From NCBI GenBank assembly GCA_019429325.1, contig JAHYJA010000002.1, positions 1-59,949 on the forward strand: a stretch of DNA of 59,949 nt, written 5' to 3'. The notes below the pieces were generated by a model. The model did not search any database and was not told the DNA's origin. It saw only the letters and a list, made by a program, of their open reading frames with translations. Origin of the DNA: Bacteroidales bacterium. GTDB taxonomy: Bacteria; Bacteroidota; Bacteroidia; Bacteroidales; VadinHA17. Shown here piece after piece: positions 981 to 25,106 of the stretch (within the stretch, counting starts at the first letter, position 1; the number at the start of each line of letters is the position of its first letter). Made by a program: the position numbers and the translations under genes.

Positions 981-1243
981 ATCAGATAAAATTAAATGAA
1001 TAAAAGAGGATATTTAAAATTGCTTCGTCAGGTATATTCTGTTAAAGTTAAACATTAATATTCATCTGACCTAAAGTGTATCTGTATCAAAATTTGTTGC
1101 TGAAGCAATATTATCCGGATTCGTCGCTTGACTTTAGTAACAGATATTATACCTTTACAAACGAAGCGTCCTTTTGCAGAATAGCAGTTGATCGACTAAA
1201 CAATAACCTGATCGAAACAATAATTCACAATAATAACAAAACA

Positions 1244-2215
1244 ATGAAATACAGAAAATTAGGAAGAACAAACCTTGATGTAAGTGAGATCGGTTATGGC
1301 ATGTGGGGTATGGCAGGATGGACCGGCTCGGATGACGAAGAATCACTTCGCTCACTTCAGTCGGCAGTCGATCTCGGATGCATCTTCTTCGATACTGCAT
1401 GGGGATATGGCAGCGGTAAGAGCGAAAGCATGCTCGGTAAAATTATAAGGGCAAACAAAGACAAGAGGCTCATTACAGCTACCAAAATGCCGCCTATGAA
1501 CTTCAAATGGCCGGCCAGACGCGAATATTCACTCGACGACTGTTATCCACCTGACCATATTGAAGAATATGTCGAAAAAAGCCTCAGGAATGCAGGTCTT
1601 GACTCTTTCGACCTCATGCAATTCCACACCTGGGAAGACCACTGGCTCGACGATGACCGGGGGATCAGGAAGATGATCGATCTGAAGGAAAAAGGATTGT
1701 TCCATGCCATCGGGATAAGCATGAACAGGTGGGAACCATGGAATGGTATCAGAGCTGTGAAAAGCGGTTTGATCGACACCGTACAGGTCATATATAACAT
1801 CTTCGACCAGAGCCCGGAAGATGAGCTCTTTCCTGCCTGCAGGGAGATGAACGTGGGTGTTATTGCCAGAGTCCCGTTCGATGAAGGTTCCCTGACCGGT
1901 ACACTCACCAGGGAGAGTAAATGGCCGGAAGGCGACTGGCGCAATACCTATTTTGTTCCGGATAACCTTATCTCAAGCGTGGAACGCGCAGATGCCCTCA
2001 AACCACTAGTCCCGGAAGGTTCCACAATGTCAGAGATGGCATTAAGGTTCATTCTCGGGGAACCGACTGTCAGTACGATTATCCCCGGTATGCGCAAAAC
2101 ACACCACGTTGTCGCAAATATGTCAGCCAGCGATGCCGGACAACTGGATCCTTCACTTATGAAAGAACTCAGGAGACACCGGTGGGATCGCAAACCGCAA
2201 AAATGGTCACAGTAA
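1244..2215 (+). CDS. aldo/keto reductase family oxidoreductase
   Basis: The canonical AKR N-terminus MKYRKLGRTNLDVSEIGYGMWG starts at ATG 1244. FDTAWGYG and a later GMRK motif are present. The GTG-1076 extension in the ORF track is AT-rich and non-homologous. Confidence 0.85.
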   Translation: MKYRKLGRTNLDVSEIGYGMWGMAGWTGSDDEESLRSLQSAVDLGCIFFDTAWGYGSGKSESMLGKIIRANKDKRLITATKMPPMNFKWPARREYSLDDCYPPDHIEEYVEKSLRNAGLDSFDLMQFHTWEDHWLDDDRGIRKMIDLKEKGLFHAIGISMNRWEPWNGIRAVKSGLIDTVQVIYNIFDQSPEDELFPACREMNVGVIARVPFDEGSLTGTLTRESKWPEGDWRNTYFVPDNLISSVERADALKPLVPEGSTMSEMALRFILGEPTVSTIIPGMRKTHHVVANMSASDAGQLDPSLMKELRRHRWDRKPQKWSQ

Positions 2216-2873: not shown

Positions 2874-3983
2874 ATGCCAAATTCAGTTTCAAAGATCAGG
2901 TCGAAAATCGCTGTTCTGGGAGCAGGACACGGAGGGCTGGCTATGGCCGGGCACCTGGCGCTTATGGGCCATAAGGTTAATCTTTTTAACCGGGGTGAGG
3001 AAAGGCTCTGGGGTGTCAGATCCTCAGGGCTGATAGAAGTAACCGGCGAGGTGGAAGGTTTTGGAAAAATAAACCTCGCCACTACAACAATGAAAGATGC
3101 AATAAAAGGAGTTGAGCTGATTATGGTAGTGGTTCCTGCCAGCGGTCACCGATGGATGGCTAAACAGATGGCTCCTCATCTGGTTGACGGGCAAATAGTT
3201 GTACTGCATCCGGGCAGAACCTTCGGGGCACTGGAATTCATACGGGTCCTGGACGAAATGAAGGTCAAGGCTGACGTTATCGTTTCTGAAGCACAGACAT
3301 TTATTTACGCGTCGCGTGCAACAGGCCCTTCGCAGGTGCATATCTTCAGGATAAAACACTCTATTCCGGTGGCCTCCATCAAGGCTCATCTTATCCCTAC
3401 CGTTATCAACAAACTAAGGCAGTTCTACCCTCAATTCATGCCCGGGGACAATATCTTTAAGACAAGCATGGAGAATATCGGCAGTGTTTTTCATCCTGCT
3501 CTCTGTGTTTTAAATGCCGGATGGATTGAGCACGATACCGACTTTCAGTTCTACCATGAGGGAGTGACTCCTTCCGTCGCCAGAATCCTGGAAAAAATTG
3601 ATGAAGAACGGGTAAGAGTTGCGGAAGCACTCGGAATCAGAGCCATTACTGCAAGACAGTGGCTTTACATGGCCTACAGCTCAACCGGACAGACACTCTT
3701 CCAGGCAATGAGAAAGAACAGCGGTTACAGGGGTATACTTGCTCCCAGGGCATTGAAAATGAGATATCTTGATGAAGATGTCCCTTTCAGTCTGGTTCCT
3801 ATAGCGTCGATAGGTAAGATGTTTAAGGTTGAGACACCCACCATCGATTCGGTTATTCACCTTGGATCCGGGATAAACTCTGTTGATTACCGGGCAAAAG
3901 GAAGAACAGTCGAAAACCTTGGTATTCAGGGTATGAGCCTCAGGGATCTCAGGCTTTTAGCTATCGGAGAAAAATCGAAGTAA
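2874..3983 (+). CDS. NAD(P)-dependent octopine/nopaline (opine) dehydrogenase family protein
   Basis: N-terminal Rossmann motif IAVLGAGHGGLAMAGHL. The C-terminal half (NIGSVFHPALCVLNAGWIE...FYHEGVTPSVARILEKIDEERVRVAEALGI) resembles the Octopine_DH helical domain. Confidence 0.75.
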   Translation: MPNSVSKIRSKIAVLGAGHGGLAMAGHLALMGHKVNLFNRGEERLWGVRSSGLIEVTGEVEGFGKINLATTTMKDAIKGVELIMVVVPASGHRWMAKQMAPHLVDGQIVVLHPGRTFGALEFIRVLDEMKVKADVIVSEAQTFIYASRATGPSQVHIFRIKHSIPVASIKAHLIPTVINKLRQFYPQFMPGDNIFKTSMENIGSVFHPALCVLNAGWIEHDTDFQFYHEGVTPSVARILEKIDEERVRVAEALGIRAITARQWLYMAYSSTGQTLFQAMRKNSGYRGILAPRALKMRYLDEDVPFSLVPIASIGKMFKVETPTIDSVIHLGSGINSVDYRAKGRTVENLGIQGMSLRDLRLLAIGEKSK

Positions 3984-3985
3984 TT

Positions 3986-5626
3986 ATGAAGAGTATTGCC
4001 GGTGCTGCCATAGGCAGTTGTGTTCACGTTGGTGGTTTACACCACTTTCTGAAGCTTGCTGAGGCTGAGGGGTATAAAACCAACTCCTGGGGCCCGGCTG
4101 TTTCTATTGAACGAGTTGTCAGGATCATCAGGGATGAAAAACCTGATATTACTGCACTAAGTTACCGGCTGACACCGGAAACCGCAGGCGAGCTGTTCGC
4201 TGAACTGAAACGGGAACTCTCCCGGGCAGGCATCAGTAATGCCAGAATGATTTTCGGTGGGACACCACCTGTTGCGATTGTGGCAGAGCAGTCAGGACTG
4301 TTTGAGCGTACTTTTAACGGAACTGAGCCTGTCGAAACAATAAAATCATATCTGAGGGGAGGCACAGGAGAAGTCTCGGAAGGAGCCTTCAGGCATACCC
4401 TTGTCAGGAGAATAGATCAGAAATACCCGTATCCGCTATTAAGGCATCACTTTGGCAGACCAACACTCGAAGAGACAATCACCGGAGTTAAAAAGATTTC
4501 GGAATCAGGGGTTCTCGATGTCCTTTCAATTGGTCCCGATCAGAATGCACAGGAACATTTCTTCAGTCCGGAGGAGATGGACCGGAGCCAGGACGGAGCC
4601 GGCGGTGTGCCGGTACGAAAACCTGAGGATCTGAGAGCCATTTACGAAAGCACCAGAACTGGGAATTATCCGCTTGTCAGATGCTATGCCGGCACCCGCG
4701 ATCTTCTGAAATGGGCTGAAATGAGTGTAAAGACCATTAACAACGCGTGGGCTGCAATCCCCCTCTGCTGGTATAGTGTGATTGACGGCAGGTCAGCCCG
4801 TACGGTCAGGGACGCGATTGGGGAGCATCAGGAGGTAATGCGCTGGTATGCCCGGAAAGGAATACCGGTAGAAGTTAATGAATCACATCAATGGAGCCTT
4901 CGGGATGCACACGATACACTCGCAGTAACCATGGCCTTCCTGGCAGCCTATAATGCAAAAAAGACGGGGGTCAGGCACTATGTTTCCCAATATATGTTCA
5001 ATAATCCGCCCGGAACCTCTGCCGAAATGGATATTGCAAAAATGATGGCAAAAAATGAAATGATAATGGAACTTTCTGACTCTGATTTCACAGTGTTCCG
5101 CGAAGTCAGGGCGGGACTCGCCCATTTTTCTGCAGACCCTTCATTTGCACAGGGCCAGCTTGCCGCTTCTGCCGTAATAAGCCTGGCATTAAAACCACAT
5201 ATTCTGCACGTAGTCGGTTTCAGCGAAGGTGATCATGCTATCTATGCTGACGAGCTTATCCAGAGCTGTAATATCGTTCACGGGGTGCTTCACAATACAC
5301 TGTACGGCATGCCGGACCTGACCGGAAACTCAGCCGTCATCAGCAGAAAAGATGAGCTTAAATCGGAGGCCAGGATTCTGCTCGATGAACTGGCAAAGAG
5401 AGGGAGTCACGTTAGCGACGACCCCTGGTCAGATCCTCAGGCAATATCAGATGCGATCAGGACAGGACTCCTTGACACTCCTCACTTTCAAGGTAACCCA
5501 CACCTGTGCGGGAGAATAGTAACCCGGCTGGTCGATGGCGCCTGGTATGCCATTGATCCTGAAACAGGAGAAAAATTAAGCGAGCCGGCAAGAATAAACA
5601 GGTTAGACCGAAGGCAGAAAAGCTGA
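3986..5626 (+). CDS. fused cobalamin-binding-domain-like / mutase TIM-barrel-like protein of unknown function
   Basis: Starts 2 nt after the previous stop. The N-terminal ~125 aa resemble the small B12-binding subunit of glutamate mutase (AIGSCVHVGG vs GSDCHAVG; later IFGGTPP). The remaining ~400 aa resemble, by eye, the large mutase barrel subunit (LRHHFGRPTLEE...VLDVLSIGPDQNAQ...). Confidence 0.55.
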   Translation: MKSIAGAAIGSCVHVGGLHHFLKLAEAEGYKTNSWGPAVSIERVVRIIRDEKPDITALSYRLTPETAGELFAELKRELSRAGISNARMIFGGTPPVAIVAEQSGLFERTFNGTEPVETIKSYLRGGTGEVSEGAFRHTLVRRIDQKYPYPLLRHHFGRPTLEETITGVKKISESGVLDVLSIGPDQNAQEHFFSPEEMDRSQDGAGGVPVRKPEDLRAIYESTRTGNYPLVRCYAGTRDLLKWAEMSVKTINNAWAAIPLCWYSVIDGRSARTVRDAIGEHQEVMRWYARKGIPVEVNESHQWSLRDAHDTLAVTMAFLAAYNAKKTGVRHYVSQYMFNNPPGTSAEMDIAKMMAKNEMIMELSDSDFTVFREVRAGLAHFSADPSFAQGQLAASAVISLALKPHILHVVGFSEGDHAIYADELIQSCNIVHGVLHNTLYGMPDLTGNSAVISRKDELKSEARILLDELAKRGSHVSDDPWSDPQAISDAIRTGLLDTPHFQGNPHLCGRIVTRLVDGAWYAIDPETGEKLSEPARINRLDRRQKS

Positions 5627-6097
5627 CTATTGGTGCAGTACCGGAATCTGACGGTTAATCGATTCTTCAAGTGAGATCAGTGTCTCCGTCCTTGAAATAC
5701 CAGGAATATTCTGAATCTTCTTAGTCAGAATATCACGCAGATGTTCATTGTCCTGTGTATAAACCTTTATGAACAGGGAGTAATTACCCGTAGTATAGTG
5801 GCATTCAATTATTTCCGAGATATCCTTGAATTTATTAATAACATCACGGTATTTTCCCGGATGATCCAGAAAGATACCGATATAGGCACAGGTTTTGAAA
5901 CCGACCAGCACGGGATCAACCTTGAACTCAGAACCTTTGATTACGCCTGTTTTAATTAGCCGCTGAACACGCTGATGAATTGCTGCTCCGGATACGTTGC
6001 ATTCCCTTGCCACCTCGAGATACGGGATTCTTGCATTCTTGGTTATAATATCAAGAATTTTCCTGTCGAGATTGTCGATTTGTATGTTTTCAGCCAT
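5627..6097 (-). CDS. Lrp/AsnC family transcriptional regulator
   Basis: MAENIQIDNLDRKILDIITKNARIPYLEVARECNVSGAAIHQRVQRLIKTGVI is a textbook AsnC HTH, followed by the RAM/ACT-like domain. ATG 6097 chosen over the hydrophobic upstream extension. Confidence 0.85.
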   Translation of the reverse strand: MAENIQIDNLDRKILDIITKNARIPYLEVARECNVSGAAIHQRVQRLIKTGVIKGSEFKVDPVLVGFKTCAYIGIFLDHPGKYRDVINKFKDISEIIECHYTTGNYSLFIKVYTQDNEHLRDILTKKIQNIPGISRTETLISLEESINRQIPVLHQ

Positions 6098-9160: not shown

Positions 9161-10396
9161 ATGTCAAGAACCCGCTTTTCGTTTCCTCTTCACTATCAGA
9201 TATTAATTGCTATCGTCGCAGGAGGGTTTTTCGGTTATATATTTCATGACCAGGTGATCTATACCAACTGGGCAGGTGAAATTTTTCTCCGGGCCCTTAA
9301 TATGATCATCGTTCCCCTGATTCTTTGTTCGATTACAACCGGAGTTGCCAGTGTCGGGTCGGGGAGTAATCTGGGCCGGCTGGGCTTGAAGACGATTGGA
9401 TTCTATTTGTTTTCGACCTTTCTGGCAATTGTCACCGGTTTCTTTTTCGTTACGCTTATTAAGCCCGGCACCGGCGCTGATCTGGGCTTCAGGGTGCCTG
9501 TGGAAGATCTTTCTGCCGTCTCAGACGGTTTTGGCGGGACGCTTATAAAAATAGTGCCGACTAACATATTTGAGGCAATGATGCAGGGACAGATGCTATC
9601 AATAATCTTCTTCGCGATTCTGTTTGGGTTTTTCATGACCAGAGTAAGCGACAACGGGCGCATTATTCTTTTGGATGTGATAAACGCCCTTCTGGACGTA
9701 ATTATGAAGATCACCCTGTTCATAATCAGGTTCACTCCTATTGGCATTTTCAGCATTACAGCAAAGGTGATTGCACAGCAGATTAACATGGGTAACGAAA
9801 TCAGCGAGATAATAAGCAGGCTGGGGCTTTACTTTATTACTGTATCCCTTGGATTGCTGATTCATGGCGCTGTTACCCTGCCCCTGCTGGTCAGGCTGAT
9901 AGGAAAAGCCAATCCCCTGAAGCATTTAAGGAACATGGCTACACCTTTACTGACAGCTTTTTCCACTTCGTCGTCAAATGCCACACTTCCTCTGACGATG
10001 GAAGCTGTTGAAACTAAAGACGGCGTTTCAAACAAGATAGCCAGCTTTACCCTGCCGATCGGAGCCACCATTAATATGGACGGAACTGCACTCTATGAGT
10101 GCGTTGCTGTAATGTTCATTGCCCAGGCCTATGGAATAGAACTTACAGTTACACAACAGCTGATAGTGGTAATGACAGCATTGCTTGCAGCTATAGGATC
10201 TGCCGGTATACCGATGGCAGGCCTGGTGATGATGGCCGTGGTTCTGAAAGCTGTCGGTTTGCCGCTGGAGGGTATCGGGCTTGTTCTGGCAGTAGACAGG
10301 ATACTCGATATGTTCAGGACAACCATCAATGTTTACGGCGACACATGCTGTGCCGTAATTGTAGCAAAATCAGAAGGGGAGACTCTGAAGATATGA
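9161..10396 (+). CDS. dicarboxylate/amino acid:cation symporter (DAACS / GltP family)
   Basis: 411 aa, polytopic. Family motifs SSSNATLP, TINMDGTALYE and VDRILDMFRTTINV are present. Confidence 0.9.
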   Translation: MSRTRFSFPLHYQILIAIVAGGFFGYIFHDQVIYTNWAGEIFLRALNMIIVPLILCSITTGVASVGSGSNLGRLGLKTIGFYLFSTFLAIVTGFFFVTLIKPGTGADLGFRVPVEDLSAVSDGFGGTLIKIVPTNIFEAMMQGQMLSIIFFAILFGFFMTRVSDNGRIILLDVINALLDVIMKITLFIIRFTPIGIFSITAKVIAQQINMGNEISEIISRLGLYFITVSLGLLIHGAVTLPLLVRLIGKANPLKHLRNMATPLLTAFSTSSSNATLPLTMEAVETKDGVSNKIASFTLPIGATINMDGTALYECVAVMFIAQAYGIELTVTQQLIVVMTALLAAIGSAGIPMAGLVMMAVVLKAVGLPLEGIGLVLAVDRILDMFRTTINVYGDTCCAVIVAKSEGETLKI

Positions 10397-10499
10397 GCGT
10401 AGAGCGTAGAGCGTAGAGCGTAGAGCGTAGAGCGTAGAGCGGGGAGCGTAGAGCGGGGAGCGGGGAGCAGGGAGCGGAGAGCAGGGAGCAGGGAGCGTA
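10395..10499. repeat. 15 tandem heptanucleotide units (GAGCGTA x6, then degenerate GAGCGGG/GAGCAGG/GAGCGGA, ending GAGCGTA)
   Basis: Counted directly: 105 nt = 15 x 7. It starts inside the TGA stop of the symporter gene and ends 6 nt before the stop of the convergent gene at 10506. Confidence 0.95.
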
Positions 10500-10505
10500 A
10501 AGATT

Positions 10506-11102
10506 TCAGAAAACGACAGAGATGCGTATTTCAGGGTTGCTGTAGAGGCCGTAGCCTGAGTCGTTAAGGGCCCATAAAACCATAAAATTCAATGCTGACC
10601 TGCGACCGATCGGCTGGCTGATCCCGCCTCCGGCAAGGAGTGTGCCGGTAGTGAACCTATCCGACTGATAAGGGGGAAGCTTCCAGAATTCGGACTCCAG
10701 ACTCAGAACCTCATATTCAGTATGGAGGAACATCCCTATATGAATTCCCAGCGGGACCACCGAATTAAGATCCTGAATAAATAGGAACTGAAGATATGAC
10801 CTGCCCCCGTAGATAGTCGTCTTCTCATAAGGGTTTTTATAAAACCTGAAATTTGGTCCGGCCGCAACTCCAAGCCGGGGTAATAACCACAGTCCCACCA
10901 CAGGAGAGATCTGGATATCCGTTATGGTCCCGAACTGAAGGCCAATACTTCCGCCATAGAATAGTCTCTCTTTAAGAGGGGGAACATCCTTTTTGGTTGC
11001 CTGTGCACAAAGAACCGACAATGAAGCAATAAATACCAGCATCATAGAAATGGACTTTCTGAAAAGCCGCACCCGGTCCGAGGTATCTCCGTATGGGATC
11101 AT
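10506..11102 (-). CDS. outer-membrane beta-barrel (porin-family-like) protein
   Basis: Signal peptide (...MMLVFIASLSVLCAQA), alternating beta-strand pattern, and a C-terminal aromatic beta-signal (...IRISVVF). The start could be an internal Met (positions 20-21). Confidence 0.55.
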   Translation of the reverse strand: MIPYGDTSDRVRLFRKSISMMLVFIASLSVLCAQATKKDVPPLKERLFYGGSIGLQFGTITDIQISPVVGLWLLPRLGVAAGPNFRFYKNPYEKTTIYGGRSYLQFLFIQDLNSVVPLGIHIGMFLHTEYEVLSLESEFWKLPPYQSDRFTTGTLLAGGGISQPIGRRSALNFMVLWALNDSGYGLYSNPEIRISVVF

Positions 11103-11177
11103 ATCGTCAAATTTGTATCTTTACACATTATCCTGCAAATAAACGAAAAAAAAGAATTTTAAACATCACGGCATATC

Positions 11178-11873
11178 ATGAATATAATAGTTAACGGAGG
11201 CACCCGCGGGATCGGAAGGGAGATTGCACTTTATCTTTCCCGCGACAGGGACAACCAGATCGTGGTGACTGGCAGGGATACTGAAGCGCTCGGAAAACTG
11301 GCTTCTGAAAGCCTTTACAATAACATATCATCCATCGAGGTGGACCTGTCAGACATTGATAATCAGACCGGATCATTCAGGGATCAGATTTACAACAGAT
11401 TCAGTCTGGTCGATATCCTTATCAACAATGCCGGTTTGCTGACAACCAGGGAATTCATGAACTTCACTAATCAGGAAGCCAGGCTGATATTAGAGACCAA
11501 TTTTATCGGACCTGCCACTGTGATCAGATTGCTTAAGCCACTTATGATCAAGGGATCACACATAGTCAATATTGCCAGTATGGGAGGGTTTCAGGGGAGT
11601 TCAAAATACAGGGGACTCTCCTACTACAGCTGTTCCAAGGCTGCGCTTGCCTGTCTCACTGAATGCCTCTCCGAGGAATTCAGGGAAGAGGGCATCATTG
11701 TTAACTGTTTGGCTCTGGGCTCAGTACAGACTGAAATGTTCGCTGAAGCATTCCCCGGATTCAGAGCCCCTGTCAACGCGGAGGAGATGGGAGCTTTTAT
11801 TGGTGATTTTGCCCTCAGGGGCAGACAATTCTTCAATGGGAAAATAATACCGGTAGCCTCAAACAATCCCTGA
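11178..11873 (+). CDS. SDR family oxidoreductase
   Basis: GGTRGIG cofactor motif, NNAG, and catalytic YYSCSK (YxxxK). Confidence 0.85.
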   Translation: MNIIVNGGTRGIGREIALYLSRDRDNQIVVTGRDTEALGKLASESLYNNISSIEVDLSDIDNQTGSFRDQIYNRFSLVDILINNAGLLTTREFMNFTNQEARLILETNFIGPATVIRLLKPLMIKGSHIVNIASMGGFQGSSKYRGLSYYSCSKAALACLTECLSEEFREEGIIVNCLALGSVQTEMFAEAFPGFRAPVNAEEMGAFIGDFALRGRQFFNGKIIPVASNNP

Positions 11874-11884
11874 ACAGTTATTAT

Positions 11885-12961
11885 TCAGTCATATTCCTTT
11901 ATCTCAGTTTTACCGTCGAGTGCCAGGAGACCGTTGTATGCGAGGGCTTTCATCTCATCCTCTCCGGGATAAACGATCACTTCCGCGATGAATTGAACCA
12001 TTTGTTTAATATACCCGGTATGAGATTCCTTATTGGCCATTCCGCCAGTGAGTATTATGGCATCGACCTGCCCGTCAAGAACAGCTGCCATTGCTCCTAT
12101 TTCCTTTCCGACCTGGTAAGCTGAAGCCCTGGCTATCAGAAGTGCCTTCGGATCGCCATTTTCTGCCAGTCTGCATACTTCCACGAAGCTGTTGGTGCCC
12201 AGATAGGCCACCATGCCTCCTTTCCCGGTTAACATTCTTCTGACTCCGTCACGGTCATATTTCCCGCTGAAGCAAAGGTCTGCCAGCTGGCCGGAGGGCA
12301 ATCCGCCTGATCGTTCCGGAGAAAAGGGTCCGTCGCCGTTGAGAGCATTATTGACATCGATCACCCTTCCCTTCCTGTGAGCGCCGACACTCACTCCCCC
12401 ACCAAGGTGTACCACAATCAGGTTCAAATCTTCATATCTTCTGCCTGATGAGTCAGCATAAGCCCGTGCAACAGCTTTCTGGTTAAGGGCGTGAAAAATT
12501 GATATCCGTTCGATTTCCGGATGTCCTGACACCCTTGCAAGCGGCTGAAGCTCATCCACAACAACGGGATCGACGATGAACGCTGAAGCGGCACCAAGTG
12601 ATGAAGCTATCTCGTCGGCTATCAGACCCCCCAGGTTGCTTGCATGCTCTCCTCTCGATCCGCTTCTCAGATCATCCTTCATCCTTTCATTCACCCTGTA
12701 TACTCCCGATTCAATCGGTTTTACAAGTCCCCCACGGCCAACTACGGCCGCGATACGGGAAAAATCAATCCCTCTCTCCTTCAGTTCATCCATTATCAGA
12801 TCCTTTCTGAAATGAAACTGGTCAGAGATTCTGCTGAACACAGATAATTCAGCTGATGAGTGACGGAGTATTTTTTCAAAAATCAGCACATCTTCCTCAA
12901 AAAGGGCGAATTTTGTGGAGGTGGATCCCGGATTGAGTGCAAGAATCAGTCGGTTACTCAT
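11885..12961 (-). CDS. buk: butyrate kinase
   Basis: N-terminus ILALNPGSTSTKFALFE, ASKHA-fold motifs (VVHLGGGVSVGAH) and a length of 358 aa are typical of Buk. Confidence 0.9.
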   Translation of the reverse strand: MSNRLILALNPGSTSTKFALFEEDVLIFEKILRHSSAELSVFSRISDQFHFRKDLIMDELKERGIDFSRIAAVVGRGGLVKPIESGVYRVNERMKDDLRSGSRGEHASNLGGLIADEIASSLGAASAFIVDPVVVDELQPLARVSGHPEIERISIFHALNQKAVARAYADSSGRRYEDLNLIVVHLGGGVSVGAHRKGRVIDVNNALNGDGPFSPERSGGLPSGQLADLCFSGKYDRDGVRRMLTGKGGMVAYLGTNSFVEVCRLAENGDPKALLIARASAYQVGKEIGAMAAVLDGQVDAIILTGGMANKESHTGYIKQMVQFIAEVIVYPGEDEMKALAYNGLLALDGKTEIKEYD

Positions 12962-13005
12962 TGGATGAATTTGTGATTTGAGGCAAATTACTAAAAAAGA
13001 ATTAT

Positions 13006-13908
13006 CTATGCCATAAGGCAGGCTAAAGCGATACAGTAATATTTTGAGTTTTCGCTCTCGCTTCTCGACATTACTATTACTGGCCTGGTTGTACCTCTTA
13101 TGAGTCCGGCAAGCTCACCGCCTGCAAACAGCACAAGCGCTTTGTAGAATGGGTTGCATGATTCAAGAGACGGAAAGAGAAGAATATCGGCATCACCCTC
13201 AACCGGAGTACTGACACCCTTTATTGCAGGACTTTTTCTGTCGCAAGCAAGAAAAATGTCGAGTGGCCCGTCCATGGTGCAACTCCTTATCTGTCCGCGG
13301 TCTGACATTTTACACATCACTGCATAATCCACCGGGTTATCGAAGTGACGGCTCATCTTTTCAGAGGCTCCGATAAGGGCAATCTTTGGCTTTGTTATCC
13401 CAAAACGCTCAGCCATTTCAATAGCATATTCCGCCATCGCAACCTTCTGTTCGAGGTTCGGAAACGGGATCACGGCGGGATCGGTAACAAACAGAAGTTT
13501 ATGATATGCCGGCATTTCAATTGCGCAGACGTAGCTGAGTATTGCACCGGGAATCATGATTCCCCTTTCCCTGTCCATAACAGCCCTGAGGAATTTGTCG
13601 GTTCCCACCTGGCCTTTCATTATAATATCCGCTTCTCCGCTGCCTGCCAGCCTGATGGCATGGGTGCAGGCATCTGCCTCTCCGGATGAGGGAATGATGC
13701 TAAAAGCTTTGGCGTCAATCCCCCGTGCCGAACAGATGCTTTTAATCGTGTCAGGGATACCGATCATCAATGCCTCAATGAAACCTTCACTTACGGCTCT
13801 GTTTATTGCGCCGATGCTGTTATCGTCGTGTGCCCAGGCAACTGCCACCCGTTGCCTTTTCCCCTGCGAAAGCACCTTTTCCACTATCTGGCTTAGGGAA
13901 CTTATCAT
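13006..13908 (-). CDS. ptb: phosphate butyryltransferase family protein, paralogue 2
   Basis: 300 aa PTA_PTB fold (ADIIMKGQVGTDKFLRAV..., DGPLDIFLA..., ADILLFPSLESCNPFYK). Confidence 0.8.
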   Translation of the reverse strand: MISSLSQIVEKVLSQGKRQRVAVAWAHDDNSIGAINRAVSEGFIEALMIGIPDTIKSICSARGIDAKAFSIIPSSGEADACTHAIRLAGSGEADIIMKGQVGTDKFLRAVMDRERGIMIPGAILSYVCAIEMPAYHKLLFVTDPAVIPFPNLEQKVAMAEYAIEMAERFGITKPKIALIGASEKMSRHFDNPVDYAVMCKMSDRGQIRSCTMDGPLDIFLACDRKSPAIKGVSTPVEGDADILLFPSLESCNPFYKALVLFAGGELAGLIRGTTRPVIVMSRSESENSKYYCIALACLMA

Positions 13909-13917
13909 GGTAAACGG

Positions 13918-14820
13918 TTATTTGCTTGCAGCTGCAGAAAGCAGAATACTGTCGTATTTGGCCTGTTCCGAATCGGATCTCGATGTTAGAACAATCGGCA
14001 CCAGTGCACCCAGTATTATGGATGCCACTTTTGCTTTAGCGAAGAAGACGAGCGATTTATACAGAACATTCCCTACCTCGATATCCGGCATCAGCAAAAG
14101 GTCCGTGTCGCCTGCAACTTCACTTTTTATGTTTTTATGTCTGGCGCTTTCAAGACTTATGGCATTGTCGAAGGCCAGAGGTCCATCAATGATGCAGTTT
14201 CTTATCTGATCGCGCTGGTTCATTTTCGAGAGAAGGGCGGCATCGAGCGTCGCTTCCATATTCTCATTTACCATTTCAACGGCACCCAGTACGGCTACTT
14301 TTGGCATCCTGTAACCAAGCCTGTTAAGAAACGCCACAGAGTTATTGACAATAGCAATTTTATCTTTCAGGTTAGGAGCTATATTCATGGCGACATCAGT
14401 AACTGCGATGAGCTTGTGATAGGTCTCCACCTCAAACAGGGCAATATGAGAAAGAAGATTACCGGTCCTGAGGCCCCATTCCTTGTTGAGTACACACTTC
14501 AGCAATGTTGATGTTCCCACTTTCCCTTTCATGAGAATGTCAGCCTGTTTGCTGCTTAGCATCCTTACTGCCATCTCAACGGCCATTTCAGTGTCGGGTT
14601 CATGGATAATCCTGAGGCCCGCAATATTATAGCCGTTTTCATCTGAGATGTTTTGAATCCCCTCCTTGTCGCCGATAAGAATCGGCTCAATGATATCATC
14701 CATCCAGGCTCTCAGTACGGCACTCAGCGAATGCTGATCCTGCGCGGCTGCCAGAACCAGCTTTCTGCGTGGTTTGCCGGCAACGATACTCTTCAGATCA
14801 CTCATATTCTTCAATACCAT
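13918..14820 (-). CDS. ptb: phosphate butyryltransferase family protein, paralogue 1
   Basis: 300 aa PTA_PTB fold (ADILMKGKVGTSTLLKCV..., DGPLAFDNA..., TDLLLMPDIEVGNVLYK). By eye only about one third identical to the neighbour. Confidence 0.8.
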   Translation of the reverse strand: MVLKNMSDLKSIVAGKPRRKLVLAAAQDQHSLSAVLRAWMDDIIEPILIGDKEGIQNISDENGYNIAGLRIIHEPDTEMAVEMAVRMLSSKQADILMKGKVGTSTLLKCVLNKEWGLRTGNLLSHIALFEVETYHKLIAVTDVAMNIAPNLKDKIAIVNNSVAFLNRLGYRMPKVAVLGAVEMVNENMEATLDAALLSKMNQRDQIRNCIIDGPLAFDNAISLESARHKNIKSEVAGDTDLLLMPDIEVGNVLYKSLVFFAKAKVASIILGALVPIVLTSRSDSEQAKYDSILLSAAASK

Positions 14821-14864
14821 AGCGCTGCTGTATTAGTTCCGGGTTCCGGGTTTATGGTTAAGGG

Positions 14865-16076
14865 TCAGACTGTATGATGTTCAACTATATATCTGGTGTC
14901 AGATGCTATGACCAGTTCCTCGTCAGTGGTGATGGCCATTACAGTTACCTTCGATTCTGGCTTCGATATAATCTTGTCCTTGCTCTTTACACCATTGTTG
15001 GCATCAAAATCGAAGATTATTCCAAGATTCTCCATATCAGAACAGATCATTGCCCTCATCTTGAAATCGTTTTCTCCGACACCACCTGTAAATATAAGGA
15101 GGTCAAGGCCATTAAGGGCGGCAATATATGAACCGATGAATTTCTTTACCTTATAGGCATACATGTTAAGGGCCAGCAATGCCTTTTCATTCCCTTCTGC
15201 CGCAGCCAGTTCAAGGTCGCGCATATCTGACGATAACTGGGAAATACCTGCAACCCCGCTTTTCTTATTAATAAGGTTATTCACTCCGGTTACATTCAGA
15301 TGCTCCTTGTCGGCTATATAAATAAGGACACCCGGATCTATTTCTCCAGTTCTTGTCCCCATTATGAGACCGTCGACCGGAGTGAAACCCATCGATGTAT
15401 CTATCGACCGTCCGTTTTGCACGGCCGTAATTGATGCTCCGTTTCCCAGATGGCAGGTTATTATCTTAAGATCTTTCAGATCCCTGCCCAGAAGTCCGGC
15501 AGCCTTGGATGCCACAAATTTATGACTGGTCCCGTGGTATCCGTATTTCCTTATCCTGTACTTTTCGTAATACTCATAGGGTAAAGCGTACATATATGCA
15601 TAATCAGGCATTGTCTGATGAAATGATGTATCAAATACGGCAACCTGGGGGATTCCGGGAATCAGTTTCTCAACCGATAATATCCCTTTCAGATTTGCAG
15701 GGTTATGAAGCGGTGCAAGCTCACTGAACAGTTCAATATTTCTTTTAACATCATTATCAACCAGTACACTCTCCTTGTAATCTTCTCCTCCGTTGACCAC
15801 TCTGTGACCAACAGCCTTGATTTCGTTTACATCATCAATTACTCCGTATTTTTTGTCGGTAAGAGCAGCCATTACCATATTGATCCCGGTTGTATGGTCA
15901 GGTATATCCGTAATAACCTTGTAAGGTTCCTTGCCGGTTGGTTTATGTGTAAGGATGCTGTCGTTCAGGCCAATACGTTCAAGAAGACCCTTCGCCATCA
16001 TATGAGTGCCGTCTGCCATGTTGAATAACTGGTATTTGATGGAAGAGCTTCCGCAATTCAAAACGAGAATGATCAT
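14865..16076 (-). CDS. ackA: acetate kinase
   Basis: ILVLNCGSSSIKYQLF N-terminus, GHRVVNGG, YGYHGTSH and HLGNGASI motifs. Confidence 0.95.
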   Translation of the reverse strand: MIILVLNCGSSSIKYQLFNMADGTHMMAKGLLERIGLNDSILTHKPTGKEPYKVITDIPDHTTGINMVMAALTDKKYGVIDDVNEIKAVGHRVVNGGEDYKESVLVDNDVKRNIELFSELAPLHNPANLKGILSVEKLIPGIPQVAVFDTSFHQTMPDYAYMYALPYEYYEKYRIRKYGYHGTSHKFVASKAAGLLGRDLKDLKIITCHLGNGASITAVQNGRSIDTSMGFTPVDGLIMGTRTGEIDPGVLIYIADKEHLNVTGVNNLINKKSGVAGISQLSSDMRDLELAAAEGNEKALLALNMYAYKVKKFIGSYIAALNGLDLLIFTGGVGENDFKMRAMICSDMENLGIIFDFDANNGVKSKDKIISKPESKVTVMAITTDEELVIASDTRYIVEHHTV

Positions 16077-16110
16077 AATATTTATTTTCTTATTAGTTTT
16101 TATATTCCTG

Positions 16111-17112
16111 CTATTTGCCTGCGGCCTGATTGGCAGTAATTGCTATCATGCTCACGATATCATTAACCGAACAACCCCGCGACAGGTCGTTGATCGGCGC
16201 CGCCATGCCCTGCAGTATCGGACCGATGGCTTCTGCCCGGGCAAGCCTCTGAACAAGCTTGTATGCTATATTGCCTGATTCGAGGTTAGGGAAGATAAGG
16301 ATATTTGCTTTCCCGGCAATTTTGCTTCCCGGTGCTTTCTTCTGGCCGATCGATTCGACAAGTGCTGCATCTGCCTGCAATTCCCCTTCAATCAGGAGGT
16401 CGGGTGCCATTTCCTTTGCTAACCTGGCAGCATTAACGACCTTATCAACCATCGGGTGACAAGCGCTTCCCATTGTAGAAAAGCTAAGCAAAGCTATTCT
16501 TGGTTCGAAACCTGCAATAGCCCTGGCTGTATGAGCTGTAGCCACCGCAATTTCTGCCAGTTGTTTTTCATCAGGATCCGGATGAACTGCGCCATCCGCA
16601 AAAATCAGTACCCCTTCCTCACCGAAATTCCTGTCAGGCAATATCATAATAAAGGCGCCGGAGACAACTGAAATTCCGGGAGCAGTTTTAACATAATGGA
16701 AGGCAGGCCGCAAAACATCACCTGTTGAGTGATCGGCTCCTGATACCTCTCCATCGGCGTCCCCGTTCTTGATCATCATGACCCCGAGATAAAGAGGATC
16801 CTCAATCAGTCGCGATGCCTCCTCTTTTGTCATCCCCTTGTGTTTCCTCAGTTCCACCATCATATCAATATATTGAGACTTCTTATCATGAGATGCGGGA
16901 TTGACGATAGTGGCCATTCCAATATTCAGTAATCCGAGCTCCTTCGCATGGCTCCTTATCCCGTCGGGATCCCCCAGCAATATTATCTGAGCAAGTCCAT
17001 CTGCAATAGCCTCATCAGCAGCTTTAATTGTTCTTTCTTCATAAGCTTCAGGCAATACAATACGTTTATTATATTTTCTGGCATTCTGTTTAATCCGATC
17101 CAATAACTCCAT
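16111..17112 (-). CDS. pta: phosphate acetyltransferase (short form)
   Basis: RIVLPEAYEERTIKAA, VSGADHSTGD and ANILIFPNLESGNIAYK are classic Pta motifs. Confidence 0.9.
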   Translation of the reverse strand: MELLDRIKQNARKYNKRIVLPEAYEERTIKAADEAIADGLAQIILLGDPDGIRSHAKELGLLNIGMATIVNPASHDKKSQYIDMMVELRKHKGMTKEEASRLIEDPLYLGVMMIKNGDADGEVSGADHSTGDVLRPAFHYVKTAPGISVVSGAFIMILPDRNFGEEGVLIFADGAVHPDPDEKQLAEIAVATAHTARAIAGFEPRIALLSFSTMGSACHPMVDKVVNAARLAKEMAPDLLIEGELQADAALVESIGQKKAPGSKIAGKANILIFPNLESGNIAYKLVQRLARAEAIGPILQGMAAPINDLSRGCSVNDIVSMIAITANQAAGK

Positions 17113-17295: not shown

Positions 17296-20259
17296 ATGGA
17301 AGTAAATCCTGTCGTTTTGCGCTTAGATGCACTTAGTGAGACCCTTGAGGGCGACCTGAAGCACGATCTGATAACCCGCACTATATATTCAACCGACGCT
17401 TCACCTTATAAGGAGATGCCGTTTGCTGTTGCCTGGCCCCGGGGAGCATCCGACATAAAGAAGATCATTGCTTTTGCCATAAAAGAGGATATAAGTGTAA
17501 CTGTCAGGGCTGCAGGTACATCTCTTGCAGGTCAGGTAGTAGGTTCGGGGATTATCGTGGATATCTCGAGGTATATGAACAGGATTCTCGAGATAAACAG
17601 TGACGGAAAGTGGGCAAGAGTACAACCCGGGGTGGTCCTGGATGAGCTTAATATGGCTGTCAGAGAGCATGGACTATTTTTCGGGCCCGAAACGTCAACA
17701 TCCAGCAGGTGCAATATTGGCGGGATGGTCGGGAACAATGCCTGCGGAGCACACTCTCTTGTTTACGGATCCACAAGAGATCACACTATTGAGCTGAAAA
17801 CTATTCTCAGTGACGGGTCAGAAGCAACCTTCGGCCCGGTCGGCAGTGACGCCTTCAGCCGGAAATGCGGTCTGGCAACCCTCGAAGGGAAAATATACCG
17901 GAACATAAAGGAAATACTCGATAATCCGCTTAACCGTAAAAGCATCAGGGAAGAGTTTCCGCATCCTTCAATCCCAAGGAGAAATACCGGATATGCTCTT
18001 GATCTGCTCCTTGATTCTGAATTATTTGATGAAGAATCAGGCAAAGAATTCAATTTCTGCAAACTTCTTGCCGGATCGGAAGGAACCCTGGCCATAATCA
18101 CAGAAATTAAACTGAATCTGGTTCCGGTACCGCCACCCCATAAGGTACTTGTCTGTATTCACCTCAGAGACAGGAAAGAGGCCTTCAGGGCAAACCTTGT
18201 GGCTCTTAAATTCGGGCCGTCGGCTGTTGAGATGATGGATAACAGAATTCTTGAACTGGCAGCGGACAACCTCAGCCAGAGGAATAACAGGTTCTTTATT
18301 GACGGGGAACCAGGGGCTGTGGTAATAGTTGAATTTGTCCGGGAGAGCGCTGAGGAAACCGATAAGGTCGTCTCCGATATGATAAATGCGCTTAAGTCTG
18401 CCGGATACGGATACTCCTGGCCTGTCATAAAAGGCAGGGATATATCAAAGGTCTGGGACTTGCGAAAAGCAGGTCTGGGCGTTCTGACAAAAATGAAAGG
18501 TGATGCCAAGCCTGTTTCCCTCATTGAAGATACAGCCGTGAGGGTTGAGGAGCTTCCTGATTACATGGATGAATTTGAGAAAATGCTCTCAGCATACGGA
18601 AAAGAAGTTGTTTATCATGCACATATCGGGACCGGAGAACTGCACATGCGACCTGTTCTGAACCTTAAGGATCAGGGTGATACCGAACTATTCCGTACCC
18701 TTGGACTTGAAACGGCCAGGCTGGTCAAAAAATACAGGGGCTCGATGAGCGGAGAGCACGGGGACGGCAGGTTAAGGGGCGAATTCATTCCCGTAATTAT
18801 TGGTGAACACAATTACGAACTTCTCAGAAGCCTTAAAAAAGTGTGGGATCCGGCAGAAATCCTGAACCGGGGTAAGATAACCGATACAGGGAGGATGAAC
18901 ACTTTCCTAAGATATGTTCCGGGGGTAAAAACGCGGGAAATCGAAACAATCTATGATTTCACATCAACAGACGGGATCATAAGGGCCGCTGAACAGTGCA
19001 ACGGATCGGGAGATTGTCGCAAATCAGTTAAAATCGGAGGTACAATGTGTCCCAGTTTCATGGCCACCGGAATCGAGGAGTACAGTACGCGGGCGCGTGC
19101 AAATATCTTAAGGGAGTTTCTGAGCAGGGAGGATACCGACCCATGGGATCATCATGAGATTTATGAAATCCTTGATCTTTGCCTTAGCTGTAAAGGTTGT
19201 AAAGCAGAATGTCCTTCAGGTGTTGATATTACCAAGCTTAAATCGGAGTTCCTGCAACACTGGTACGACAAGCACGGCGTACCGCTACGGACAAGGCTGA
19301 TAGCCTATATATCAGTGCTTAACAGGCTGGGGGCATTAGCTCCGGCAATATTTAATTTCTTTGTACGGAACCCCCTTACATCCGCTTTAATAAAAAAGGT
19401 CACCGGTTTCGCTCAAAAACGTACTATACCTTTATTATATAAGACAACATTAAGAAAGTGGATAAAAAAAGAACTTGTAAAACTAAATCCGGTAAGCCCG
19501 GCAGGCTCGGTCGTGCTTTTCGTTGACGAGTTCACCGATTATAACGACACATACATTGGTATCACAGTCATAAAATTGCTGACGACCCTGAACTATAAGG
19601 TAATAATAACTGAACATGACGTCAGTGCCAGGACATTCATTTCAAAAGGCCTTATCAGAAAAGCAAAAAAAATCATAAGAAGAAATATTAATAATCTCGC
19701 AGGCCTGGTGACTCCTGATATTCCTCTTATCGGTATTGAACCATCCGCAATTCTCGGCTTCAGGGATGAGTATCCCGAACTGGCAGGAAATGACCTTAAG
19801 GAGAAGGCTGAAAGACTCTCCGCCAGCAGTTTTCTCATTGACGAATTCATTGCCGCCGAATTCCGGGCAGGAAGGATATCACGCGAATCGTTCACAGACG
19901 AAAAAAGAAAGATATTACTGCATGCACATTGTCAGCAAAAGGCAGTCGCCTCATCGGCATGCACCATTGAAATGCTATCCATCCCTTCCTGCTATTCGGT
20001 CAGTGAGATCCCTTCGGGGTGCTGCGGCATGGCCGGATCGTTCGGTTATGAAAAGGAACATTATGATCTGTCGGCCAGGGTTGGGGAACTGGTCCTTTTT
20101 CCGGAGATAAGGGAGAGTGAAGATGACACAATTATCGTTGCTCCCGGTACCAGTTGCAGGCACCATATCAGCGATGGTACGGGAAGAAAAGCCCTTCATC
20201 CCGCAGAGGTCCTTTACAATGCACTTAAGAATAACGGAATCAGATCAACGGGCGTATAA
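17296..20259 (+). CDS. YdiJ-like FAD-linked oxidase fused to 4Fe-4S and CCG (GlcF-like) domains
   Basis: 987 aa. N-terminal FAD_binding_4/GlcD-like region; two Cys clusters (CNGSGDCRK...CPS and CLSCKGCKAECPSG); C-terminal CCG-type motifs (HAHCQQKA, PSGCCGMAGSFG). Confidence 0.8.
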   Translation: MEVNPVVLRLDALSETLEGDLKHDLITRTIYSTDASPYKEMPFAVAWPRGASDIKKIIAFAIKEDISVTVRAAGTSLAGQVVGSGIIVDISRYMNRILEINSDGKWARVQPGVVLDELNMAVREHGLFFGPETSTSSRCNIGGMVGNNACGAHSLVYGSTRDHTIELKTILSDGSEATFGPVGSDAFSRKCGLATLEGKIYRNIKEILDNPLNRKSIREEFPHPSIPRRNTGYALDLLLDSELFDEESGKEFNFCKLLAGSEGTLAIITEIKLNLVPVPPPHKVLVCIHLRDRKEAFRANLVALKFGPSAVEMMDNRILELAADNLSQRNNRFFIDGEPGAVVIVEFVRESAEETDKVVSDMINALKSAGYGYSWPVIKGRDISKVWDLRKAGLGVLTKMKGDAKPVSLIEDTAVRVEELPDYMDEFEKMLSAYGKEVVYHAHIGTGELHMRPVLNLKDQGDTELFRTLGLETARLVKKYRGSMSGEHGDGRLRGEFIPVIIGEHNYELLRSLKKVWDPAEILNRGKITDTGRMNTFLRYVPGVKTREIETIYDFTSTDGIIRAAEQCNGSGDCRKSVKIGGTMCPSFMATGIEEYSTRARANILREFLSREDTDPWDHHEIYEILDLCLSCKGCKAECPSGVDITKLKSEFLQHWYDKHGVPLRTRLIAYISVLNRLGALAPAIFNFFVRNPLTSALIKKVTGFAQKRTIPLLYKTTLRKWIKKELVKLNPVSPAGSVVLFVDEFTDYNDTYIGITVIKLLTTLNYKVIITEHDVSARTFISKGLIRKAKKIIRRNINNLAGLVTPDIPLIGIEPSAILGFRDEYPELAGNDLKEKAERLSASSFLIDEFIAAEFRAGRISRESFTDEKRKILLHAHCQQKAVASSACTIEMLSIPSCYSVSEIPSGCCGMAGSFGYEKEHYDLSARVGELVLFPEIRESEDDTIIVAPGTSCRHHISDGTGRKALHPAEVLYNALKNNGIRSTGV

Positions 20260-24713: not shown

Positions 24714-25106
24714 GTGTGCAGCTGGCCTGTAAGCCGGATTCTGTCCCGGTCCTGTTATCTGCAAAAGAAGTTAAGACCGGTTTTCATCATTTATCTTGTC
24801 ACGATATCGCTATCGCGATCATACGACCCACCCCCCGGCATCGGACGAGCAATCCTTTCAGGCCGGTATACATGGTCTTTCAACCCATAAGGTGTACGGC
24901 TTCCCGTGTTGCCACAGGAACCGGTGAGCTCTTACCTCACCTTTTCACCCTTATCCCGACGGATCGGGACGGTTATTTTCTGTTACACTACTATACCCTC
25001 GCGGATATCTTCCCGTTAGGAAGCATGGTGCTCTGTGTTGTCCGGACTTTCCTTTCCGGTATTCCGGCTGAGCCGGCCCGGAACGATGAAACGTCCAGCT
25101 GCACTG
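24714..25106 (-). ncRNA. rnpB: RNase P RNA, bacterial type A
   Basis: The minus strand reads ...GGAAAGGAAAGUCCGGACAACA... (CR-I), ...AAGGGUGAAAAGGUGAGGUAAGAGCUCACC... and ...GGGACAGAAUCCGGCUUACAGG... (CR-V). The P1 stem is formed by GUGCAGCUGG (25104-25095) and CCAGCUGCAC (24725-24716). Ends are approximate to within a few nt. Confidence 0.88.

Follow-up and report, generated by a model that had tools for sequence, protein, structure and literature searches.

An opine-type dehydrogenase gene coupled to a gene for a single-chain relative of glutamate mutase, a probable adenosylcobalamin isomerase

A dehydrogenase gene coupled to a B12-domain gene

What could an opine-type dehydrogenase and a protein resembling a B12-dependent mutase be doing together in a single transcription unit? 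The question was raised by a 59,949-nt stretch of DNA from a Bacteroidales bacterium (VadinHA17; assembly GCA_019429325.1, contig JAHYJA010000002.1, positions 1 to 59,949, forward strand), hereafter the window, in which a gene of the opine dehydrogenase family (2874–3983, plus strand, 369 aa) is directly followed by a gene (3986–5626, plus strand) for a 546-aa protein that joins a B12-binding domain to a barrel like that of the glutamate mutase E subunit. Analyses of the two proteins, of their homologues and of the related gene neighbourhoods led us to the view that this is an operon of an opine-type dehydrogenase and, probably, a new adenosylcobalamin isomerase, namely a single-chain relative of glutamate mutase that acts on a substrate other than glutamate. 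Both open reading frames (ORFs), together with the end at 5627 of a convergent ORF behind them, had been given in an initial annotation made from the sequence, and they agreed exactly with the ORF list. The junction (3981–3988) reads as a TAA stop (3981–3983), a 2-nt spacer and an ATG at 3986, and the GC content is level throughout the region; this directly read spacer, and a dehydrogenase gene lying directly upstream in most related loci (below), agree with the translational coupling that had been proposed for the pair.

The upstream product is predicted to be an NAD(P)H-dependent opine-type dehydrogenase typical of its family, whose members reversibly join an amino group and a 2-oxo acid to give an N-(1-carboxyalkyl) amine. 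It matched Pfam Octopine_DH (PF02317) at 1.7e-46, with 158.4 bits versus a cut-off of 30, and its residues 12–360 aligned with residues 7–355 of PDB 1bg6, the N-(1-D-carboxyethyl)-L-norvaline dehydrogenase CENDH (E = 1.1e-68). The GxGxxG dinucleotide motif is present as GAGHGG, and His207, Arg297 and Asp302 aligned with CENDH His202, Arg292 and Asp297, which we take to be the catalytic residues; this triad was invariant in 71 of 71 partner dehydrogenase genes. One related report came from the literature: in a Thermoanaerobacter strain adapted to ethanol, expression of Teth514_2108, an ‘octopine dehydrogenase’ that may or may not be the partner gene, was raised (PMC3751872).

The two genes form one operon, and it is widely conserved. 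At E < 1e-3, the 8,000 candidates examined for the 546-aa protein yielded more than 7,600 homologue clusters at 90% identity, and a search at 50% identity gave 709 representatives. Scanning one genome for each species gave 80 loci, and the gene context was counted on 83 loci whose mutase-like protein carries a Cys in its B12 loop (Cys-type, see below). Co-occurrence of the pair across genomes, proposed as a check by the initial annotation, was thereby found: the dehydrogenase gene was present in 78 of the 83 loci, in 76 of them as the immediate upstream neighbour on the same strand, while four of the five loci without it were truncated by a contig end. In most loci the two genes lay between −4 and +30 nt apart; 13 loci had them overlapping by 4 nt. 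The hosts comprised Bacteroidales, Rikenellaceae, Ignavibacteria, Melioribacter, Aminicenantes, Nitrospirota, Armatimonadota, Hydrogenedentota, Spirochaetes, thermophilic Firmicutes (including Caldanaerobacter subterraneus, Tepidanaerobacter, Thermoanaerobacter, Fervidicola and Maledivibacter) and one Methanomicrobia metagenome-assembled genome (MAG), so that the pair is spread over more than ten phyla with one archaeal MAG included; no homologues were found on plasmids. An apparent dehydrogenase–mutase fusion ORF in one locus (L052) was rejected; its two parts lie in different frames, so that it reflects the long open frames of high-GC DNA. Two metagenomic representatives (P0143 and P0175) read as if a dehydrogenase C-terminus were fused in frame to the mutase-like protein; they show frameshift signs at their ends and may be assembly errors.

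A glutamate mutase fold with a Cys-x-His loop and an altered pocket

The 546-aa protein was modelled with AlphaFold (AF2) on a 48-sequence alignment, giving a mean predicted local distance difference test (pLDDT) score of 82.7. Its N-terminal part (aa 1–115, 3986–4330) is a B12-binding Rossmann domain by fold and homology: Pfam PF02310 matched residues 4–101 at 7.4e-7, below the gathering score; a profile of the 48-sequence family matched PDB 4jgi at 1.9e-7, and also MttC (7xcn_M), 1y80 and MetH; and Foldseek placed the domain with GlmS (1i9c_A, template modelling (TM) score 0.74) and HcmB (4r3u_D), over a TM range of 0.74–0.82. In the model the first strand of the Rossmann domain starts from residue 3, with no helical cap ahead of it. 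These three lines of evidence agree with the earlier claim that the N-terminus resembles the small, cobalamin-binding subunit of glutamate mutase.

The base-off/His-on loop of this domain departs from the canonical DxHxxG, in which the Asp normally hydrogen-bonds the cofactor histidine. Codons 12–17 (4019–4036) read C12-V-H14-V-G-G17, just as the initial annotation had noted when it described a CxHxxG with Asp replaced by Cys, and HMMER aligned C12, H14 and G17 on the D, H and G of the loop in the corrinoid proteins 4jgi and MttC (7xcn_M). In 48 homologues of 68–94% identity these three residues were invariant, as were S59, L62 and G91-G92, and among 19 cluster representatives of 38–52% identity C12, H14 and G17 were kept in 18; the conservation of these three, which had been singled out for checking in orthologues, is far beyond chance. 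The N-terminus could be aligned in 340 family sequences; of these, 263 had Cys and 71 had Asp in the Asp column, counts that mirror the sampling and not natural frequencies. In a quick neighbour-joining distance tree, made without support values, the deeper clades (DAHTLG, NDPHTxG; ∼610–630 aa) carry Asp and the clade of the window protein carries Cys; the Asp orthologues L151, L160 and L162 (GNDVHIAG) are nested within the Cys clade, and a Cys member, L097 (GDCPHTEG), stands inside the Asp clade. Such an interchange of Cys and Asp at one position in similar proteins speaks more for a functional His-on site than for a defunct one. The remaining cysteines, C233, C261 and C428, are all variable, which makes a metal cluster unlikely.

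The remaining part of the protein, aa 147–546 (4424–5626), comprises a GlmE-like TIM barrel and a C-terminal region, the eight β-strands of the barrel lying at residues 151–409 in the model. Searching the PDB with Foldseek gave the glutamate mutase E subunit as top match (1cb7_B/6h9e_B, E = 2.4e-15, TM 0.56/0.63, 441 columns), followed by ornithine 4,5-aminomutase (OAM, ∼1e-9), lysine 5,6-aminomutase (5,6-LAM, ∼1e-8) and methylmalonyl-CoA mutase (∼1e-6); the sequence identity to GlmE in the Foldseek alignment was ∼17%. By hhalign, a family profile of 38 sequences and a GlmE profile comprising the E. coli O157 GlmE and homologous sequences aligned over 362 columns (E = 7.7e-6, residues 149–533 on GlmE 60–440; 1.7e-6 in global mode). 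Profiles were needed on both sides: with a single sequence, the hhalign comparison with GlmE was weak (probability 4%), and sequence searches of the PDB with the barrel, as a single sequence or as a profile of 15, found no match. NCBIfam held no family for the 546-aa protein, and the sole family member above the gathering score of Pfam Met_asp_mut_E (PF06368) was P0132 (27.5 bits versus 26.6). The large mutase subunit that had been recognized by eye in the last ∼400 aa is thus corroborated, and the fold comparison suggested at the time, with glutamate mutase S and E, returned both GlmS and GlmE.

The likeness to glutamate mutase holds for the fold and not for the substrate pocket. Arg66, Arg100, Arg149 and Glu171 of GlmE, which we take to be its glutamate-binding residues (1cb7/1i9c), corresponded in the profile alignment to His155, Gln189, Tyr234 and Ala257, respectively, with the register at Tyr234 uncertain by two residues and Arg232 as the alternative. 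The protein is therefore not a strict glutamate mutase, and its substrate would not be glutamate, since these arginines and Glu171 are replaced. The family-invariant residues at or just past the barrel strands (among them R153, H155, D185, Q189, R232, Y234, D267, R269, E296, W303 and H408) would be placed, as far as the model tells, where a cofactor-facing active site is expected. Glu414 (codon 5225–5227) aligned with GlmE Glu330; it was invariant in close homologues, as alignments A1 and A3 showed, and in A2 its conservation was at least 90%. In glutamate mutase, Glu330 stabilises the dissociated adenosyl radical pair, like Glu370 of methylmalonyl-CoA mutase (PMC4413051). As for the lysine of pyridoxal phosphate (PLP) enzymes, K23 is the sole lysine near the cofactor histidine and varies among K, R, D, A, T and Q in the representatives. 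In PLP/B12 aminomutases the lysine that binds PLP belongs to the Rossmann domain and follows closely on the cofactor histidine, and the lack of a conserved lysine there argues against a PLP aminomutase.

Neighbouring genes, fused relatives and a sister clade

A third gene frequently joins the pair. In 52 of the 83 loci an AsnB-like gene lies downstream of the mutase-like gene, to which, among solved proteins, E. coli AsnB was nearest (1.2e-46) and beta-lactam synthetase much more distant. Examples drawn from the downstream genes of loci L021–L082 came in a short form of ∼446 aa, which starts MAGIAG and is without the N-terminal Cys nucleophile (e.g. L030, 9662–11008), and a long form of ∼490 aa, which starts MCGI (e.g. 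L026, 9647–11134). No AsnB-like gene was present anywhere in the window. In L005, a relative of 79% identity whose flanking genes are those of the window, such a gene (9840–11180) stands between the mutase-like gene and an AsnC gene, and it is because this gene is missing that the AsnC gene of the window directly abuts the mutase-like gene at 5626/5627. The window lineage thus appears, by this comparison, to have lost its AsnB-like gene, which leaves the dehydrogenase–mutase pair alone here.

The abutting AsnC/Lrp-type regulator gene (5627–6097, minus strand) is a convergent neighbour, at most a putative member of the module. The stop of the 546-aa gene is TGA (5624–5626), and the minus-strand stop (CTA) begins at 5627; the ORF, read as a 156-aa form from an ATG at 6097, has the same length in its orthologues. 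Its identity was supported by Pfam AsnC_trans_reg (1.2e-19) and HTH_24 and by NCBIfam AsnC (1.1e-47, below its cut-off). Identity and abutment are therefore as initially annotated, and a conserved partnership is not: AsnC stood near the pair in only 6 of the 83 loci, all close relatives, and is convergent in the window, by which a conserved regulator of the operon was ruled out. A polar amino acid ABC transporter, with ATPase, permease and binding protein named by eye, adjoins the pair in several Firmicutes loci (L074, 4038–6433; L055, 10331–12408; L071, 5018–6503). A link to osmotic stress, from MscS, ClC, NhaD-like and MarC-like genes named by eye in 10–12 loci, was discarded as too patchy.

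Relatives of the canonical Asp type were collected by a metagenome scan with Asp-type queries (79 loci), and the opine-dehydrogenase-family gene was kept in 56 of these, with Pfam PF02317 at 7e-27 and the catalytic His, Arg and Asp conserved. Most dehydrogenases of this clade (L084–L152, e.g. L124, 9904–11157) read GSSQSG versus GAGHGG in the window enzyme, so dinucleotide binding may differ. The ∼610-aa relatives with NDPHTxG (L098–L152, e.g. L119, 5136–13355, and L110, 2736–12555) lie inside surface-glycan clusters, together with genes for a Bac_transf initiating sugar transferase, DegT aminotransferase, epimerase/dehydratase, GT2 and GT4 glycosyltransferases and aldo/keto reductase, the last in 11 loci; ATP-grasp ligases also occur there, ATP-grasp_4 directly upstream in 34 loci and ATPgrasp_ST downstream in 27, and P0132 has a fused ATP-grasp domain. 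Cys-type relatives of ∼1,225–1,266 aa (L155, 6968–10642; L156, L157, L159, P0155 and P0157) bear a C-terminal MutL/GlmL domain (PF13941 7e-76; GlmL by phmmer 9e-31), which we take to be the proposed reactivase of glutamate mutase; in L155 and L157 an opine-dehydrogenase-like gene lies ∼400 nt upstream of the fused protein. Across the superfamily, a predicted mutase recurs in company with an opine-type dehydrogenase as well as a carboxylate-amine ligase.

Elsewhere in the window, an aldo/keto reductase gene (1076–2215, plus strand) lies 660 nt upstream of the dehydrogenase gene, as it does in the two closest relatives. A run of acyl-phosphate genes (11885–17112, minus strand) comprises an acetokinase-family gene, butyrate-kinase-like by eye, two tandem PTA_PTB paralogues, acetate kinase and phosphotransacetylase, and is followed by a 987-aa FAD-oxidase/Fe-S protein (17296–20259). 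The sole Rfam match in the window was a bacterial RNase P RNA of class A (24714–25102, minus strand, 242.5 bits), and a scan for sigma-70 promoters and terminators gave counts not above those of shuffled sequence.

Competing explanations, proposed mechanism and known systems

Several observations weigh against an adenosylcobalamin isomerase. We know of no characterised B12 enzyme with an Asp-to-Cys change in this loop, and mutating the DxHxxG Asp cripples glutamate mutase and methionine synthase. The cofactor histidine itself is lost in two representatives, P0136 (GDPKYTNE) and P0150 (GDGPRTGA), which may be degenerate. The sequence evidence that the barrel is homologous is of modest strength (84% probability in hhalign), and the window protein gave no match to Met_asp_mut_E. 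Neither adenosyltransferase nor GlmL/reactivase genes occurred in the 83 Cys-type loci, the Rfam scan of the window gave no cobalamin riboswitch, and no cobalamin transport or salvage genes were noticed in the window, whose 60 kb are only partly annotated. A literature search found no biochemical work on the family, cobalamin binding included.

Much of this could be explained if the Rossmann domain no longer bound B12, the Cys–His pair serving as a metal site or redox switch and the barrel being non-radical or regulatory: the canonical Asp is replaced, PF02310 stays under its gathering threshold, two members are without the histidine, and B12 accessory genes are not seen nearby. Such a loss is unlikely in our judgement, given that the other elements of the B12 motif are invariant, that Asp and Cys interchange among close orthologues, that the adenosyl-contacting Glu is kept, that reactivase-like fusions exist in Cys-type members and that a metal cluster would find no second conserved cysteine. 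If B12 is bound, it might be as methylcobalamin in a corrinoid methyltransferase with the barrel as its substrate-activating module, which would suit two facts: in sequence the B12 domain comes closest to corrinoid proteins of methyltransferases and to MetH (MtgC in NCBIfam), and some databases label family members ‘methionine synthase’. The missing helical cap before the Rossmann fold, a barrel that matches radical mutases, with MttB, MtaB and pterin-binding barrels not among the listed matches, and the Glu330 equivalent and MutL fusions, both pointing to adenosylcobalamin, make a methyltransferase very improbable.

Among radical enzymes, an aminomutase of the ornithine 4,5- or lysine 5,6- kind, with the dehydrogenase oxidatively deaminating the shifted amine, would suit the second-best structural matches (E 1e-9 to 4e-8), the amino acid transporter adjoining several Firmicutes loci and the gene order, for in the fermentations of ornithine and lysine a mutase step is likewise followed by a dehydrogenase; the dehydrogenase DAPDH is named in PMC4413051. 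Set against this, the match to GlmE is a million-fold better by E-value, K23 is unconserved and leaves no obvious PLP lysine, and the partner belongs to the secondary-amine (opine) dehydrogenases and keeps their full catalytic triad, so we rate an aminomutase as quite unlikely. An ordinary glutamate mutase converting glutamate to 3-methylaspartate, its S and E subunits merely fused, would agree with GlmE as the best structural match, with P0132 passing Met_asp_mut_E and with the MutL-fused relatives. It is nonetheless the least probable of the explanations considered here: besides the exchanged pocket residues, the low identity and the missing PF06368 match, neither the window nor any of the 83 Cys-type loci contained a methylaspartate ammonia-lyase or a separate GlmL/MutL gene, and the constant partner, an opine dehydrogenase, is no part of the methylaspartate pathway.

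For the adenosylcobalamin isomerase that we favour, the following sequence of events is proposed. The N-terminal Rossmann domain would hold cobalamin base-off/His-on via His14, with Cys12 in place of Asp, and the GlmE-like barrel would hold the adenosyl group, through Glu414, plus the substrate. Homolysis of the Co–C bond would then give a 5′-deoxyadenosyl radical, which may drive a 1,2-rearrangement of an amino acid or an N-carboxyalkyl amino acid, and the dehydrogenase would either produce or use up the compound rearranged by the mutase. In most relatives the product would then be amidated by the asparagine-synthetase-like enzyme, and in the sister clade it may be handled by ATP-grasp ligases within the surface-glycan clusters. 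A bolder version, conceivable yet doubtful, is that the family is a new class of adenosylcobalamin isomerase that takes an N-carboxyalkyl (opine-type) amino acid from its partner dehydrogenase into a pocket opened by loss of the arginine claw and Glu171, with a Cys–His pair under the cobalt where an Asp–His pair is near-universal, and that the trio with the amide ligase is a general way of making unusual amino acid building blocks. If true, these would be free metabolites in anaerobes like the Bacteroidales of the window and glycan decorations in the sister clade.

To our knowledge, the past decades have brought hardly any new adenosylcobalamin isomerase reactions. Solving this one would add a B12-dependent step to the metabolism of anaerobes and explain a widespread orphan opine dehydrogenase, in a large family that extends over more than ten phyla and has cultured thermophilic Firmicutes among its hosts. 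The natural Asp-to-Cys swap with its reversions offers a ready test of how the residue behind the cobalt-binding histidine tunes Co–C chemistry, and the sister clade would tie the same chemistry to capsule/O-antigen-type clusters of gut and rumen bacteria.

How new is the pair? Zhang, Rodionov, Gelfand and Gladyshev (2009, BMC Genomics 10:78, PMC2667541) predicted a new family of B12-dependent proteins and called for experiments; in their description it has a distant N-terminal B12-binding domain and a large domain called only ‘TIM-barrel-like’, is ‘always adjacent’ to a pfam02317 octopine/nopaline dehydrogenase gene, has D-Ala-D-Ala ligase (ATP-grasp) and asparagine synthase genes nearby in several organisms, and comes from 11 genomes of four phyla, Clostridia included. 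The window family shares the B12 domain and the pfam02317 neighbour, the window itself being without the asparagine synthase gene; from the overlap of taxa (Thermoanaerobacter, Caldanaerobacter) and the identical gene context, matched by description, the two families are very likely one. Thus, the pair reported by the initial annotation stands as an observation and not as a discovery, since both the family and its dehydrogenase neighbour were predicted in 2009; its remark that no characterised pathway matches agrees with our literature search, which found neither such a pathway nor later work taking up the 2009 prediction. The section of the 2009 paper on this family makes no mention of the Cys variant, of a relationship to GlmE or of the glycan-cluster sister clade. 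What is new here is the placing of the large domain in the fold of the glutamate mutase E subunit, the predicted change of the substrate pocket with the putative adenosyl-contacting glutamate kept, the Cys-x-His loop as an apparent clade signature interchanging with Asp-x-His, and the frequent third gene, its loss in the window lineage and the glycan-cluster sister clade.

Among characterised systems, glutamate mutase (GlmS/GlmE, EC 5.4.99.1, 1cb7/1i9c) shares with the 546-aa protein the capless B12 Rossmann domain, the GlmE-type barrel with its C-terminal extension, the His loop, the Ser, Leu and Gly-Gly motifs and the adenosyl-contacting glutamate, and some family relatives are fused to a MutL/GlmL-like domain. 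Unlike GlmS/GlmE, the 546-aa protein is a single chain with its B12 domain first and Cys for Asp, its family has the arginine claw and Glu171 replaced, and its partner is an opine dehydrogenase and not methylaspartase. The dehydrogenase resembles Arthrobacter CENDH end to end, with triad and GxGxxG intact, but unlike CENDH and other opine dehydrogenases its gene sits in an operon with a B12-type enzyme; we know of no characterised opine dehydrogenase so locked. A B12 mutase accompanied by an NAD(P) dehydrogenase acting at a C–N bond, as here, is also seen in OAM with 2,4-diaminopentanoate dehydrogenase and in 5,6-LAM with 3,5-diaminohexanoate dehydrogenase, although these differ in having PLP on a conserved lysine, a C-terminal B12 domain and unrelated dehydrogenases. 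By way of analogy, the same three-part logic may be seen in pyrrolysine biosynthesis, where a radical amino acid mutase (PylB), a carboxylate-amine ligase of the ATP-grasp type (PylC) and an NAD dehydrogenase (PylD) act; PylB belongs to the radical SAM enzymes, and the window-type proteins have no homologue among the three, so that the likeness is one of logic only.

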